Positions 9,249 to 25,602 of a stretch of DNA of 26,369 bases are shown piece after piece (the stretch's first letter is position 1; each line of letters begins with the position of its first letter). Made by a program: the position numbers and the translations under genes. The stretch lies in IMG/VR virus record IMGVR_UViG_2660238444_000003, positions 1-26,369 of that record; one strand, given 5' to 3'. Under the pieces are notes generated by a model, which worked only from the letters and a program-made list of their open reading frames with translations, did no database searches and was not told the DNA's origin. The DNA is from a virus. Taxonomy: Duplodnaviria > Heunggongvirae > Uroviricota > Caudoviricetes.

Positions 9249-9851
9249 AAGCAGCCGCTCCTTCTAATTCGTCTCGTCTGATGTTGTAAACGTCCTGCGC
9301 TTTTTGCTGCTCCGGTGTGCCTTCGAGCATCTTCCACGCTTTGGCGAACGCCTGTTTAAGCTCTTCCACGGTGTTTTTCTGCAATGCTGCGTCAGTGAAT
9401 GCTTTTAGAACCTGTTCAGGTGTAGGTGATGGTTTTGATTGCTTTACTGCTGCGTTCTGCTGATGTTTATGCTCGTCTGTATCTGCATCTTTCGCATCAT
9501 CAATGCCGAACAAACCATTAAGGCAATACTTGCGCGCATAAGAGCTTGTAGCTCCAGTAACTTGTGCAGAATCCATTCCTTTCTTGCTTTCTTCCTCTCG
9601 TGCAAGAGCGGTTGCCGTATGACTGTTTTCGCCATCGGTAATAGTTGCCGTGGCTTTCACGTAATACCGATCACCAATCAACACAACTTCATCGCTGATT
9701 GATAAAAACAGACCATTCAGTAACGGCTTAACGCCTTCAAGAATGTCTTCGCAGCTTCTGTATTTATATTTACCGAATGAGTTGTACTGATTCTTTGGCG
9801 CATTCAGATTCTCCTGAATAGCTGCCAGTCTTGCGTAAAATTCTTTGCTCA
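9247..9851 (-). CDS. erf: Erf-family single-strand annealing recombination protein (P22 Erf-like)
   Basis: MSKEFYARLAAIQENLNAPKNQYNSFGKYKYRSCEDILEGVKPLL... matches P22 Erf as recalled; start taken at the internal ATG of ORF 9247..9882. Confidence 0.8.
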
Positions 9852-9941
9852 TATGATTGTTCTCAGAATGGACACGGCCCAAGTAAATAACGCTGATTTA
9901 ATACTTCAGTCTTTGCCGCATTTAAAAATACGCGAACACCT

Positions 9942-12164: not shown

Positions 12165-12295
12165 GTTTTTGGTGAAATAATGATAAACAAATGAATACAA
12201 AGGATATTTATTTTTTTCGGTGTCTGCTTGTTCAGTGCTTTTTATGCGGGATATGTGAAGTGGATCCCGATAGCTATTGCTGCCGGGATTATAGG

Positions 12296-12664
12296 TTAGT
12301 CAGCGAAGGTTAAGACGAGAATTACCTTAATGATGTCTGCTACAACAGACACGGCCATAGATAAACCAAAGACGATCCAAGCCACAGTGATGTCTTCACT
12401 ACCATCGTATAGAGTTCCGTAATCACTGGTGTAAGGCGTAAATGTCGCGCCTTGATACAATAGGTATAAGCTTGATCCATAGAGGATAAATGCAGATATC
12501 CCTTGTATTGCTATGATCACAAGAATCATGAAACGAGCTGATCTATGCGCCCAAGCCTGGCTTATTTTTTCTGATAGAGATTTCGCAATAAAAGCATGCG
12601 CTAAGCCGTAAATTGTCGAGATTGCCAACATCCCAAAAAAGCTTGCTATAGCGGTTCCAACCAT
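12296..12664 (-). CDS. Small multi-pass membrane protein in the rex position (candidate superinfection-exclusion / abortive-infection protein)
   Basis: 122 aa from ATG at 12664 (AAGGGG 6 nt upstream); several long hydrophobic stretches (e.g. FMILVIIAIQGISAFILYG, VAWIVFGLSMAVSVVADIIKVILVL); immediately downstream of cI on the same strand, between cI and OL. Confidence 0.6.
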   Translation of the reverse strand: MVGTAIASFFGMLAISTIYGLAHAFIAKSLSEKISQAWAHRSARFMILVIIAIQGISAFILYGSSLYLLYQGATFTPYTSDYGTLYDGSEDITVAWIVFGLSMAVSVVADIIKVILVLTFAD

Positions 12665-12681
12665 AAGCGCCCCTTGCGTGA

Positions 12682-13398
12682 TCAAACCAGCCTTAGTTTT
12701 GTCTCAATTGCAACGCCTATAATCTTGCAGTTTCCATTGATTGGCACGAGAGGCCATGCAGGATTAAGTCCCTTGAGGTATTTATTTCCGCCGTCGATTA
12801 TCAGCTTCTTGAATGTTGCTTCGTTAGAGTCAGAAAGTTTTGCTATGACCAAGCTGCCGTTGATCGCCTCCCTTCCGGTATCGAAAAGAACGAATGTTCC
12901 CTCTGGAATGCTTAACCCAACCGGTGCCGTCATTGAATCACCTTCCACTTTAAGCCAGAACGCATTACCTTGAATATGCGCGTCAGACTCAAGCCAAACA
13001 TCTATGTCTTTAATGGTGTATGGTTCGCATGCTTCACACCACGAGCCAGCCTGGATACTGCTTAACACCGGATACCTCTTTCCTGCTCTGTATTCCCCTG
13101 CATACCTTACGTTGGCATCGCTCTTAAGGCTTTCTGCCTGTTCTGCAACCTTGGCAGCAATTGACTGGCTAAAATCAGCAATTGAGACTTGCAACAGTCG
13201 TGCAAAACCAGATGCAACCTCAACGTTTAGCGCGTTTCTGCCATTAAGATAATGCCCTACCGCTCCTTGGGTGATACCCAGTTCATCAGCGATTGAGTAT
13301 TGGGTTATTCCCAATTCTTTCTTTTTTGACTCATACAAAGCCTTAAGCCGCTTAGCGTCTTCGAGCTGTTCTGTCGTCAGTGATTTTTTATTTTCCAT
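12682..13398 (-). CDS. cI: CI-type prophage repressor (HTH plus S24 autopeptidase domain)
   Basis: 238 aa; LTTEQLEDAKRLKALYESKKKELGITQ..., AG cleavage site (IQAGSW), FWLKVEGDSMTAP and FKKLI catalytic motifs; very similar in layout to lambda CI as recalled. Confidence 0.9.
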   Translation of the reverse strand: MENKKSLTTEQLEDAKRLKALYESKKKELGITQYSIADELGITQGAVGHYLNGRNALNVEVASGFARLLQVSIADFSQSIAAKVAEQAESLKSDANVRYAGEYRAGKRYPVLSSIQAGSWCEACEPYTIKDIDVWLESDAHIQGNAFWLKVEGDSMTAPVGLSIPEGTFVLFDTGREAINGSLVIAKLSDSNEATFKKLIIDGGNKYLKGLNPAWPLVPINGNCKIIGVAIETKLRLV

Positions 13399-16585: not shown

Positions 16586-16615
16586 TGACCATCTACATCA
16601 CTGAGCTAATAACAG

Positions 16616-16643
16616 GGGCTATTTACACAGTAGCCCTTTTTTA
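16616..16643 (+). terminator. Intrinsic terminator-like hairpin after the helicase gene
   Basis: gggcta / tagccc stem with 9-nt loop followed by TTTTTTATT. Confidence 0.5.
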
Positions 16644-16669: not shown

Positions 16670-16882
16670 ATGGACACCGTTAACGGAATATGTTCAGACG
16701 CACCGCGTGCCAAAAAATGTAAATGCGGAAAATCACCGACAATATTCGACATGGAGAACGGATGCCAAATCTACTGCGCTAACCATGCTGCTGTGGCGGC
16801 CGCGAATTATCGCAGTGCGGTAACGGAGTGGAATAACCTGAAATCTGTTAGAGAGGGAAGTCATGAAAAAACTAACCTTTGA
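16670..16882 (+). CDS. Hypothetical Cys-rich small protein
   Basis: 70-aa ORF with CKCGK...C..YC..H spacing suggestive of a zinc ribbon; GAGGGGG upstream. Confidence 0.5.
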   Translation: MDTVNGICSDAPRAKKCKCGKSPTIFDMENGCQIYCANHAAVAAANYRSAVTEWNNLKSVREGSHEKTNL

Positions 16883-17303
16883 AATTCGATCTCCAGTACA
16901 TCAGCAAAACGCTATTCACGCAGTACAGCAAATCCTTCCAGACCCAACAAAACCAATCGTAGTAACCATTCAGGAGCGCAACCGCAGCTTAGACCAAAAT
17001 CGGAAGCTTTGGGCTTGCCTTGGTGACGTCTCTCGTCAGGTTGAATGGCATGGTCGCTGGCTGGATGCAGAAAGCTGGAAGTGTGTGTTTACCGCAGCAT
17101 TAAAGCAGCAGGACGTTGTTCCTAACCTTGCCGGGAATGGCTTTGTGGTAATAGGCCAGTCAACCAGCAGGATGCGTGTAAGCGAATTTGCGGAGCTATT
17201 AGAGCTTATACAGGCATTCGGTACAGAGCGTGGCGTTAAGTGGTCAGACGAAGCGCGACTGGCTCTGGAGTGGAAAGCGCGATGGGGAGATCGGGCTGCA
17301 TGA
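16863..17303 (+). CDS. ninB: NinB recombination protein
   Basis: MKKLTFEIRSPVHQQNAIHAVQQILPDPTKPIVVTIQERNRSLDQNRKLWACLGDVSRQVEWHGRWLD... near-identical to lambda NinB as recalled. Confidence 0.9.
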   Translation: MKKLTFEIRSPVHQQNAIHAVQQILPDPTKPIVVTIQERNRSLDQNRKLWACLGDVSRQVEWHGRWLDAESWKCVFTAALKQQDVVPNLAGNGFVVIGQSTSRMRVSEFAELLELIQAFGTERGVKWSDEARLALEWKARWGDRAA

Positions 17304-17827
17304 CTATCAAATCAAATACGCCAGCACACGACAAGGACTGCTGGCAAACGCCGCTTTGGCTTTTTGATGCACTGGATATTGAGTTTGGATTCTGGCTGGA
17401 TTCGGCAGCGAGCGACAAAAATGCTCTGTGCGCTCACTGGCTGACTGAGGCCGACGACGCGCTCAATTCTGAGTGGGTAAGCCACGGTGCAATCTGGAAT
17501 AACCCACCGTACAGCAATATCAGGCCGTGGGTGGAAAAAGCCGCTGAGCAGTGCATACAACAGCGACAGACGGTAGTGATGCTTGTGCCAGAGGATATGT
17601 CAGTCGGATGGTTCAGCAAGGCTCTGGAGAGTGTCGACGAAGTTCGCATCATCACTGATGGACGGATTAATTTTATCGAACCATCGACAGGGCTGGAGAA
17701 GAAGGGAAACAGTAAAGGCTCAATGCTGCTGATTTGGCGACCGTTCATCAGTCCTCGACGGATGTTTACTACCGTATCCAAAGCGGCATTGATGGCGATC
17801 GGGCAGGGCGTCAGGAGGGCGGCATGA
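17300..17827 (+). CDS. Phage Dam-type DNA N6-adenine methyltransferase
   Basis: 175 aa from ATG at 17300; NPPY catalytic motif (IWNNPPYSN); in the nin region between ninB and ninE. Confidence 0.78.
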
Positions 17828-18000
17828 GGCGACAGCGACGAAGTATCACCGACATAATCTGCGAAAACTGCAAATACCTTCCAACGAAACACTCCAGAAA
17901 TAAACGCAAGCCAATCCCAAAAGAATCTGACGTAAAAACCTTCAACTACACGGCTCACCTGTGGGATATCCGGTGGCTAAGGCATCGTGCGAGGAAATGA
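17824..18000 (+). CDS. ninE: NinE protein
   Basis: [58 protein letters not shown] matches lambda NinE as recalled; ATGA overlap with the upstream stop. Confidence 0.8.
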
Positions 18001-18356
18001 CAATGGATTATTCACAGTTAAGTGATTTTGAAATTAACAAGCGAGTGGCAATTTGCTGTGGATTTGCTCCCGAAGATTGCGAAATCGCAAAGTTGGGAAC
18101 ATCAATCGTTGGTGTTGAGTGGGATGACGAAACTGGTTATGCAATAAAAACGGTTGATTACTGTAAAAGCCCATCAGACGCAGAGCCGATTATCGTAGAG
18201 AACAGAATTGGCATTATTCCAGCGCCAGAAAATGGATTATGGAAGGCAGCGCATAGAAAAGTTGGCAGTGATAGTACCCCATATCATATGACTCAAGATG
18301 AAAACCCACTCCGCGCCGCCATGATTGTCTTTCTCATGATGCAGAGAATCCAATAA
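17997..18356 (+). CDS. Hypothetical nin-region protein
   Basis: 119 aa from ATG overlapping the ninE stop; no motif recognised. Confidence 0.55.
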
Positions 18357-18532
18357 TGCTTAGCCCATCCCAATCCATTCAATACCAGAAAGAAAGCGTC
18401 GAGCGGGCTTTAACGTGCGCTAACTGCGGTCAGAAGCTGCATGTGCTGGAAGTTCACGTGTGTGAGCACTGCTGCGCAGAACTGATGAGCGATCCGAATA
18501 GCTCAATGTACGAGGAAGAAGACGATGAGTGA
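18356..18532 (+). CDS. ninF: NinF protein
   Basis: 58 aa [58 protein letters not shown], matches lambda NinF as recalled; below the ORF-track cut-off. Confidence 0.75.
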   Translation: MLSPSQSIQYQKESVERALTCANCGQKLHVLEVHVCEHCCAELMSDPNSSMYEEEDDE

Positions 18533-18737
18533 TTACCTGAAATGGTATCTCTGCCACCGCTGGTTAATTAAGTTTGCTGTAAAAGACTGGATGACAGCGG
18601 ATGCCAACAAGCTTAAGCAACGAAAGGACTATTACTACGCCAGAATGAAGGAAAACTACTGCTCAATTCGCACTCGCATATTTATTAAAAAAGACCTTCA
18701 GTCAATTCTTCAATTGCGAGGGAAGGTAAATGGCTAA
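18525..18737 (+). CDS. Hypothetical nin-region protein
   Basis: 70-aa ORF, start overlaps the ninF stop; end overlaps the next gene start. Confidence 0.5.
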   Translation: MSDYLKWYLCHRWLIKFAVKDWMTADANKLKQRKDYYYARMKENYCSIRTRIFIKKDLQSILQLRGKVNG

Positions 18738-19020
18738 CCTACGCAAAGAAGCATGCGGCAGAGAATGCCAGGTACGTATTTACGGCGTATGCAATGGTAA
18801 TCCTGAAACCACAGTTCTGGCACATTACCGGATGGCTGGAATTTGCGGAACTGGAATGAAGCCTGACGACCTGATCGGCGCATGGGCTTGTAGCGCGTGT
18901 CACGATGAAATCGACCGACGCACCCATAATCTCGACAACAAAGACGCCAGGCTTTACCACCTCGAAGGCGTGATCAGGACGCAGTCGATACTGCTGAAGG
19001 AGGGGAAGATTAAGTCATGA
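18730..19020 (+). CDS. YbcO-like (DUF1364-type) Cys-rich protein upstream of rusA
   Basis: 96 aa with Cys/His clusters (CGRECQ...C...C...WACSACHDE); same size and position relative to rusA as ybcO of the DLP12 prophage, as recalled. Confidence 0.6.
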   Translation: MANLRKEACGRECQVRIYGVCNGNPETTVLAHYRMAGICGTGMKPDDLIGAWACSACHDEIDRRTHNLDNKDARLYHLEGVIRTQSILLKEGKIKS

Positions 19021-19379
19021 GCGAATATCAGTTTGTGCTTCCATACCCGCCGTCGGTGAACACCTACTGGCGAAGACGGGGAAGCCAATACTACATCAGC
19101 GATAAAGGCCAGAAATACCGAAAAGACGTTCAGCAAATCATCCGCCAACTTAAGTTAGACATTTTCACCAAATCACGACTCCGCATCAAAGTCATCGCAG
19201 ACGTTCCAGACTCCCGCCGCCGCGACCTCGACAACATCCTGAAAGGTTTACTCGACTCCCTTATCCACGCCGGATTTGCGGAAGACGACGAGCAATTCGA
19301 TGACATTCGCGTAATTCGTGGCGTGAAAGTACCAGGCGGAAGGCTTGGAATAAAAATCACCGAACTGGAGAACGCATGA
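19017..19379 (+). CDS. rusA: RusA Holliday-junction resolvase
   Basis: 120 aa; ...DSRRRDLDNILKGLLDSLIHAGF...GGRLGIKITEL matches the RusA catalytic core (RRRDLDN, GGRL). Confidence 0.85.
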   Translation: MSEYQFVLPYPPSVNTYWRRRGSQYYISDKGQKYRKDVQQIIRQLKLDIFTKSRLRIKVIADVPDSRRRDLDNILKGLLDSLIHAGFAEDDEQFDDIRVIRGVKVPGGRLGIKITELENA

Positions 19380-23601: not shown

Positions 23602-23636
23602 TGCTCAACCTGAAATAACAACTAAGTGAGATGAAT

Positions 23637-24125
23637 ATGGCAGCACCAAAGGGCAACCGATTTTGGGTGGCCCGCAGTAGTCATGGGCGAAATCCTAAAT
23701 TCGAATCGCCTGAGGCGCTGTGGGCTGCTTGTTGTGAATACTTCGAGTGGGTGGAAGCTAACCCGCTATGGGAGATGAAGGCGTTCTCGTATCAGGGTGA
23801 AGTGATACAAGAGCCTATCGCCAAGATGCGAGCGATGACCATTACCGGCCTCACTCTGTTCATTGATGTGACGCTTGAAACATGGCGCACATATCGCCTG
23901 CGAGAAGATTTATCTGAAGTCGTTACGCGAGCAGAACAGGTCATCTACGACCAGAAATTCTCTGGCGCAGCCGCTGACCTTCTCAACGCTAACATCATCG
24001 CCCGTGATTTGGGCCTCAAAGAGCAGTCGCAAGTTGAAGACGTGACACCTGATAAGGGAGATCGCGATAAGCGGCGCTCTCGTATCAAGGAGCTATTCAA
24101 CCGTGGAACTGGACGCGATTCTTGA
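23637..24125 (+). CDS. Terminase small subunit (P22 gp3 type)
   Basis: [48 protein letters not shown]... matches P22 gp3 as recalled; second ATG of ORF 23631..24125 chosen on SD spacing. Confidence 0.8.
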
Positions 24126-25602
24126 TAACCTGAGCGACGAAGAGCAAATCGAATTGCTCGAGCTACTCGAAGAAGAAGAGAACTACCGGAACACACACCT
24201 GCTATATGAATTTACGCCATACAGCAAACAGCGTGAGTTCATCGACGCCGGGCATGACTATCCAGAGCGCTGTTTTATGGCTGGTAACCAGCTTGGTAAG
24301 TCATTTACCGGTGCTGCCGAAGTCGCGTTTCACCTTACAGGGCGTTATCCGGGCACAAAAGGCTATCCTGCTGATGGTAAATATGGCGGTGAGTGGAAAG
24401 GTAAGCGTTTCTATGAGCCCGTTGTCTTCTGGATTGGTGGCGAGACAAACGAGACTGTAACCAAAACGACTCAACGCATCCTGTGCGGTCGTATCGAAGA
24501 GAATGATGAGCCTGGCTACGGTTCCATACCGAAAGAAGACATCATTAGCTGGAAGAAGTCTCCTTTCTTTCCGAACCTTGTTGATCATCTTCTGGTTAAG
24601 CATCACACGGCTGATGGCGTTGAAGATGGCATTTCAATCTGCTACTTCAAACCATACTCGCAAGGCCGCGCTCGCTGGCAGGGTGACACAATCCACGGCG
24701 TGTGGTTTGACGAAGAGCCACCATACAGCATTTATGGCGAAGGGCTTACCCGTACCAACAAATACGGGCAATTCTCAATTCTGACGTTTACCCCGCTGAT
24801 GGGAATGTCTGACGTTGTTACCAAGTTCCTGAAGAATCCCAGCAAGTCGCAGAAAGTGGTCAACATGACCATCTATGACGCTGAGCACTACACCGACGAG
24901 CAGAAAGAGCAAATCATTGCATCCTATCCCGAGCATGAGAGAGAGGCGCGTGCTCGCGGTATTCCTACGATGGGTAGCGGTCGAATCTTTCAGATACCGG
25001 AAGAGACGATTAAGTGTCAGCCGTTCGAGTGTCCTGATCACTTCTACGTAATTGGCGGGATGGATTTCGGATGGGATCACCCGCAGGCGCAGGTTCAGCT
25101 TTGGTGGGATAAAGACGCAGACACAATCTACGTTTCACGCGTGTGGAAGGCGAAAGAAAAAACAGCCGTTCAGGCGTGGGGAGCCGTTAAATCATGGGCG
25201 CATAAAGTGCCAACAGCATGGCCTCATGACGGAAACCAGCACGAGAAGGGCGGCGGTGAGCAGCTCAAAGGGCAGTATGCAGACGCTGGATTTATGATGT
25301 TGCAAGAGCATGCGACATGGCCTGATGGCGGTAACGCTGTTGAGCCAGGCATCACTGAATTGCGCGACATGATGCTTGATGGTCGCTTCAAAGTATTCAA
25401 CACCTGTGAGCCATTCTTTGAGGAGTTCCGCCTCTATCACCGTGATGAAAACGGGAAAATCGTCAAGCTTAACGACGACGTTCTCTCAGCCGTTCGTTAT
25501 GCATACATGATGCGCCGCTTCGCAAAAATGATGCGCGACATCAAAAAACCAAAAGAGAAAAAGATACCAGCCCCAATCAGGCCCATCGCACGGAGAACTT
25601 AA
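24103..25602 (+). CDS. Terminase large subunit (P22 gp2 type)
   Basis: 499-aa ORF overlapping the small subunit gene; ATPase then nuclease domain organisation; N-terminus [37 protein letters not shown]. Confidence 0.88.

Follow-up and report, generated by a model that had tools for sequence, protein, structure and literature searches.

The closest described systems to the gene considered here are M.EcoVT2Dam of the Stx phage VT2-Sakai, the Dam enzymes of phages HP1 (orf13) and T1, PamA of the S. aureus mosaic phi11 and M.Phi93DAM of the lactococcal phage phi93. T1 Dam is reported as a GATC enzyme. M.EcoVT2Dam is stated to target 5′-GATC-3′ (PMC6602927), with its cloning paper cited in PMC7556043, and the same source names HP1 Dam as a phage-encoded Dam-like protein, reported to be a GATC enzyme, and cites its cloning paper as well. 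PamA, a protein of 141 aa with NPPY at residues 64–67, renders genomic DNA sensitive to DpnI, an effect that is lost in NPPY point mutants (PMC11042277), and its demonstrated role is the regulation of host genes. For M.Phi93DAM, the modified site was identified as G6mATC by SMRT sequencing together with DpnI and DpnII digests, and the enzyme protects DNA from DpnII in vitro (PMC4190342). The hosts of PamA and M.Phi93DAM have no Dam of their own, so that the methylation brought by these two phages is new to the cell. A separate group, the Hia5-type adenine methyltransferases, is non-specific; these enzymes are larger, with DPPY, a motif I of the form FxGxG and ~90 residues that make up a divergent recognition region (PMC3299994).

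The locus described here lies in a window of 26,369 nucleotides (the whole stretch of DNA analysed) and encodes a methyltransferase whose protein is identical over 175 of 175 residues to orf32 of VT2-Sakai (NP_050531). Indeed, no difference from M.EcoVT2Dam was found at the protein level, and the slot between ninB and ninE and the reported GATC target are shared too. The two genes differ in their phage background, since VT2-Sakai is a Stx phage, whereas the present copy sits in a P22-like prophage at a tRNA-Thr gene by proBA. The other relatives are more distant: identity to the methyltransferase is 38% for HP1 Dam, 33% for T1 Dam, 29–34% for PamA and 33% for M.Phi93DAM, the last of which is 62% identical to PamA. 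HP1 Dam and T1 Dam share with the present protein the PF05869 domain, the small size, NPPY, an N-terminal D-x-W-x-TP, the L-D pair at motif I and R-x-x-F near the C-terminus; their genomic contexts are different (HP1 is P2-like and T1 is virulent), and T1 Dam is longer by 45 residues at the N-terminus and by an insertion of 14 residues. PamA and M.Phi93DAM differ by being shorter (140–141 aa) and by having no C-terminal helix.

Family assignment is based on consistent profile matches. PF05869 (DNA N-6-adenine-methyltransferase, Dam) was found with E=6.4e-65 and 218.4 bits over model positions 1–167 of 169, against a cut-off of 28.1 bits, and the NCBIfam equivalog TIGR01712 (phage N-6-adenine-methyltransferase) with E=9.7e-80 and 265.9 bits over positions 1–165 of 165, against a cut-off of 97.05 bits; such scores place the assignment far beyond chance. 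In addition, the protein matched phrog_111 ('DNA methyltransferase', E=9e-88), and HP1 Dam, T1 Dam and PamA each score as PF05869 themselves. When aligned with HP1, T1 and PamA, residues T17, P18, L33, D34, N68–Y71, R122 and F125 are invariant, and W15 is kept in HP1 and T1 and absent from PamA; these positions are likewise kept in 35 close homologues. The protein is a small, single-domain class I SAM methyltransferase (this family spans about 140–240 aa) with no separate target-recognition domain, and it has the motif IV NPPY, the N-terminal W-x-TP and a motif I-like L-D. Neither the PF02086 match nor the recognition domain between motifs I and IV that mark the classical alpha-class Dam family (E. 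coli Dam, T4 Dam and DpnM) was found in it. As judged from its sequence, the gene is therefore a member of the T1/HP1/VT-2 'phage Dam' family, PF05869. Membership of the non-specific Hia5/Hin1523/Nma1821-type family was considered and rejected, the protein having NPPY, no FxGxG and only 175 aa, and matching PF05869 alone.

The preliminary description of this DNA had reported a 175-aa open reading frame with NPPY between ninB and ninE and had called it an N6-adenine DNA methyltransferase. Its coordinates proved exact (Table 1), NPPY falls on residues 68–71, the two flanking genes were confirmed by their own profile matches, and the methyltransferase motifs were present on alignment with HP1, T1 and PamA. 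The choice of start codon deserves a comment, as the longest mechanical reading frame is 195 aa, opening at a GTG at 17240. Three observations identify the ATG at 17300 as the true start: the PF05869 match starts with residue 4 of the shorter, 175-aa protein, the N-terminus MTIKSNT pairs with MMTKSNT of HP1 Dam, and the 175-aa form is the version annotated in VT2-Sakai and RefSeq. From this ATG, the frame runs on the plus strand to a TGA that ends at 17827. The segment L33–S38 is likely the equivalent of the AdoMet-binding motif I, an assignment consistent with the invariance of L33 and D34 across T1, HP1, PamA and the close homologues. Antisense reading frames within the gene (17434–17958 and 17312–17560, minus strand) were discarded as spurious, their best family match (E=0.023) lying below the cut-off. 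The methyltransferase gene is real and intact.

Table 1. Positions of the methyltransferase gene, its motifs and the adjoining elements of the operon (window coordinates)
Feature	Position	Strand	Remarks
Terminator-like hairpin with T-run	16614..16638	+	downstream of P, upstream of the nin genes
ninB (Orf-type recombination mediator)	16863..17303	+	PF05772, E=4e-54; upstream neighbour, same operon
ATGA overlap, ninB stop and methyltransferase start	17300..17303	+	
Phage N6-adenine DNA methyltransferase, coding sequence	17300..17827	+	PF05869/TIGR01712; protein identical to VT2-Sakai orf32 (M.EcoVT2Dam)
L33-D34-S35-A36-A37-S38 codons	17396..17413	+	end of predicted strand beta-1
Catalytic motif IV NPPY, codons AAC CCA CCG TAC	17501..17512	+	residues 68-71; invariant in every aligned homologue
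ATGA overlap, methyltransferase stop and ninE start	17824..17827	+	
ninE	17824..18000	+	PF05322, E=4e-43; downstream neighbour, same operon

A sequence search of the PDB returned no relative of the protein (the best match, SdiA with E=0.24, is noise), and the structure was modelled with AlphaFold from 36 homologues. The model (mean pLDDT 84, pTM 0.83) shows an alternating pattern of strands and helices, in which NPPY comes just after strand beta-4 (residues 64–68). In fold searches with this predicted structure, proteins 2 to 8 times larger were matched through their catalytic domains over about 140 of the 175 residues, so that a separate recognition domain could not be accommodated. The protein is thus predicted to be essentially a bare N6-adenine methyltransferase catalytic domain without a separate target-recognition domain. 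It follows that the enzyme, which would work like Dam, stands outside the E. coli Dam/T4 Dam family, and the GATC specificity common to the phage Dam and E. coli Dam/T4 Dam families looks convergent. A mode of GATC reading that has not been described before, for example through a dimer or a hairpin, could operate in this 175-residue enzyme.

With regard to the target, the preliminary description had left the specificity undefined, which is out of date, as homology leads directly, through the complete identity with VT2-Sakai orf32, to an enzyme for which GATC is stated (PMC6602927). The annotation of VT2-Sakai holds no methyltransferase besides orf32, and we infer from its being the sole recognisable one that orf32 is the M.EcoVT2Dam of REBASE. 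The 2806-aa giant protein of VT2-Sakai was examined as an alternative candidate for M.EcoVT2Dam and was ruled out, no methyltransferase domain having been found in it. On the basis of secondary citations, REBASE-derived statements and this equation of orf32 with M.EcoVT2Dam, the N6 position of the GATC adenine is assigned to the enzyme as its target.

The genomic surroundings are those of an ordinary lambdoid early operon. N, cI, cro, cII, O, P and Q are all present in the lambda order, and the methyltransferase is followed by NinE, NinX and then NinF, YbcO, RusA, NinH and Q. The overlaps at both of its ends imply translational coupling with ninB and ninE; note that overlaps of the ATGA type are general in nin regions (bioRxiv 10.1101/2020.10.05.325894). 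In lambda, ninB and ninE are separated by ninC and ninD, so that what may appear as an insertion of the methyltransferase gene is a normal mosaic alternative. The hairpin upstream of ninB presumably occupies the position of the lambda tR2, which suggests that the nin genes, including the methyltransferase, need N antitermination. Scans of promoters and terminators gave counts no higher than those of shuffled controls, and of their predictions the strong hairpin at 16614–16638 alone was retained, as an analogue of tR2 by position. By analogy with lambda, the gene would be transcribed from pR, past the tR2-like terminator, once N is active, and as part of the delayed-early rightward operon, its product would be made mainly during lytic growth.

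Two further stretches of the operon were noted. Between the tR2-like hairpin and ninB, positions 16670–16882 hold a cysteine-rich reading frame of 70 aa whose only match is phrog_6308 (function not assigned); it was considered as a counterpart of the 'Lar-like restriction alleviation' gene found at the same position in VT2-Sakai, and this was rejected as the two show no similarity. Further downstream, positions 18525–19379 encode another 70-aa reading frame (phrog_3973), the putative nuclease YbcO (phrog_131, 'HNH endonuclease') and RusA, linked by stop/start overlaps.

The absence of a restriction partner, as put forward in the preliminary description, was upheld. The best PADLOC matches of the methyltransferase are the orphan-methyltransferase models PDLC03721 and PDLC03726, none of the nine neighbouring reading frames matched a PADLOC defence or restriction model, and, likewise, none of the reading frames scanned across the window carries a Pfam domain of a restriction endonuclease. 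YbcO and RusA are ordinary nin-region nucleases and do not constitute a restriction partner. The methyltransferase is an orphan, with no cognate endonuclease gene adjacent to it.

Altogether, we consider it highly probable that the gene is best explained as an orphan phage Dam identical to M.EcoVT2Dam, acting on the N6 of the GATC adenine and belonging to the lytic nin operon. Regarding the benefit for the phage, virion DNA of lambda and P22 is reported to be under-methylated by host Dam, possibly as replication outruns the enzyme (bioRxiv 10.1101/2020.10.05.325894). Host Dam alone would leave such phage DNA under-methylated, and a phage Dam would bring this fast-replicating DNA to full GATC methylation. 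The fully methylated progeny genomes would then resist nucleases that cut unmethylated GATC, such as enzymes of the MboI/DpnII type and possibly the host MutH. The part of this role that concerns protection from restriction is tentative, and we stop a little short of favouring it. An anti-restriction function, which had also been proposed at the outset, is a plausible, reasonable reading for the methyltransferase at the level of the family: M.Phi93DAM protects against DpnII, as mentioned above, and DefenseFinder places the methyltransferases of EHEC phages under anti-RM (PMC12502783). Since E. coli Dam already marks GATC, the benefit of a phage Dam would be conditional and the anti-restriction role not straightforward.

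The distribution of GATC sites also bears on this question. For the prophage part of the window (2803–26369), an order-2 Markov model predicts 119 ± 11 sites, and 57 are present, a depletion of about two-fold that makes GATC the second most depleted 4-base palindrome there, after CTAG. No such depletion is seen in the host genes alongside, with 14 sites for 16 expected. A similar depletion was found in VT2-Sakai and in the nin region of lambda, and a weaker one in T1. Such depletion indicates that sites are avoided as well, and the phage may owe its protection mainly to something other than methylation.

These numbers enter into an alternative that keeps the same GATC biochemistry and places the selected role elsewhere, namely in protection from the host mismatch-repair nuclease MutH and from SeqA binding, and not from classical restriction enzymes. 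MutH would cut phage DNA that is under-methylated, recombining and mismatch-bearing at its unmethylated GATC sites, and the phage Dam, produced along with NinB and RusA for recombination, would prevent this. We regard this alternative as serious, if unlikely. Evasion of MutH and SeqA would explain both the coupling to the recombination module and the two-fold depletion of GATC; indeed, the methyltransferase is translationally coupled to ninB, which encodes an Orf recombination mediator, and shares its operon with RusA and YbcO, and the depletion concerns the prophage and not the host genes, with the same depletion in VT2-Sakai and the lambda nin region. Deschavanne and Radman (1991) reportedly attributed the depletion of GATC in enterobacterial phages to MutH. 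Moreover, E. coli hosts are Dam+, so that the phage would seldom face classical restriction at GATC among its usual hosts. The under-methylation of lambda and P22 virion DNA (bioRxiv 10.1101/2020.10.05.325894) fits this alternative as well. However, the relatives PamA and M.Phi93DAM act in Dam-less Gram-positive hosts and cannot have a role in MutH evasion, and for M.Phi93DAM the protection against DpnII was demonstrated directly in vitro (PMC4190342). It is unlikely, yet conceivable, that in Dam+ enterobacteria the true role of the phage Dam is not to defeat restriction enzymes and is instead to complete the GATC methylation of fast-replicating, recombining phage DNA so that MutH and SeqA neither attack nor sequester it.

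A less probable explanation is that the enzyme would be mainly an epigenetic regulator, produced to some extent from the prophage or upon induction, whose GATC methylation at host or phage promoters would alter the maintenance of lysogeny or host phenotypes, as PamA does in S. aureus. The methylase activity of PamA reprogrammes host transcription and virulence (PMC11042277), and the protein of phage Phi24B, identical to the present one, was recovered when lysogen cultures were screened for expressed genes, the authors proposing that it supplements host Dam in the maintenance of lysogeny (PMC3342100); stable lysogeny of 933W is also reported to need host Dam, as cited in PMC3342100. Nevertheless, nearly all GATC sites are methylated in Dam+ E. 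coli, so that an extra methylase would add little in a lysogen, and the location of the gene downstream of the terminator-like hairpin, in an N-dependent operon, points to expression in the lytic phase. The signal in lysogen cultures may stem from spontaneously induced cells, and the detection of the Phi24B protein could reflect either some expression in lysogens or spontaneous induction only. For these reasons, a mainly epigenetic role appears improbable to us. Finally, the idea of a relaxed or non-specific adenine methyltransferase (Hia5- or M.EcoGII-like), giving broad protection from restriction and for which GATC was merely the part assayed, can be invoked from the lack of a recognisable target-recognition domain, from older assays that, as cited, used restriction enzymes and were blind to off-target methylation, and from the occurrence of prophage-borne non-specific adenine methyltransferases in E. 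coli (PMC6602927, Table 3) and in Mu-like prophages (PMC3299994), but it is hardly credible, as the known non-specific enzymes belong to another family with DPPY and FxGxG (PMC3299994) and the present protein matches only PF05869, SMRT sequencing gave specifically G6mATC for the family member M.Phi93DAM (PMC4190342), and for strain 95NR1 (O111), with its two near-identical copies (99.2%), the reported 6mA motifs are GATC, CTGCAG and CRARCAG, none of them non-specific (PMC6602927).

The preferred reading, that of an orphan GATC methylase of the lytic nin operon, concerns a gene that is widespread. DNA of the methyltransferase was found at 95–99% identity in 1566 of the 5426 complete E. coli genomes (~29%), with up to five copies per genome, and these copies are always annotated as 'phage N-6-adenine-methyltransferase' and lie between NinB and NinE. 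Among phages, the ninB–ninX query region (16800–18400) matches 440 records at the DNA level, including HK97, HK544, Sf101 and many Stx phages, and the protein search retrieved 2134 phage records that encode a relative of the methyltransferase. In HK544, HK97, IME10 and Sf101, the corresponding DNA is 97–98% identical. The same protein is reported in Stx2 phage II, with 99% identity in HK97, and 'dam' of Phi24B was reported to be 100% identical to NP_050531 (PMC3342100). The gene is therefore already known and routinely annotated, an ordinary phage methyltransferase, and little is left for discovery, the identical protein having been cloned and assigned to GATC. It should be noticed that the prophage copies represent extra GATC methylase capacity, with which methylome studies have to reckon.

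The element that carries the gene is a P22-like/lambdoid prophage integrated at a thrW-type tRNA site adjoining proBA. The 5′ end of the window is host DNA, with proB (157–1347), proA (1359–2612) and tRNA-Thr(CGT) (2727–2802), directly followed by a tyrosine integrase (2817–4043, minus strand), and this tRNA was the sole Rfam match in the whole window. Besides the integrase, the prophage encodes Erf, Abc2, N, cI, cro, cII, O, a DnaB-like P, the nin genes, Q, lysis genes, a P22-type gp3 and a large terminase. Its best DNA matches (mEpX2, HK542, IME10 and HK620) are patchy and cover 37–47% of the query, as expected for a mosaic lambdoid/P22-like phage. The anti-RecBCD protein Abc2 (8547–8840, minus strand) and the Erf recombinase (9247–9882, minus strand) are of P22 type, and the packaging genes comprise a gp3-type small terminase (23631–24125) and a T4-type large terminase (24103–25602). 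These P22-type modules and the terminases indicate a P22-like headful packager and not a cos-type lambda.

Several other reading frames of the prophage were recorded. In the early-left region, positions 6854–7933 (minus strand) encode a protein of 359 aa that combines a dATP/dGTP pyrophosphohydrolase domain (PF04447) with DUF551. A 129-aa reading frame (12296–12685, minus strand) overlaps the end of cI at the position of rex in lambda, with phrog_6534 as its only match and no match in PADLOC; the densest run of GATC in the window, seven sites within 600 bp (12263–12862), lies in and around it. Another reading frame of 129 aa, towards the integrase end (4660–5049, minus strand), has part of a Peptidase_S24 (LexA/UmuD-like) domain as its only domain, a DNA-binding one being absent, and may represent a repressor that has been truncated or a fragment resembling UmuD.
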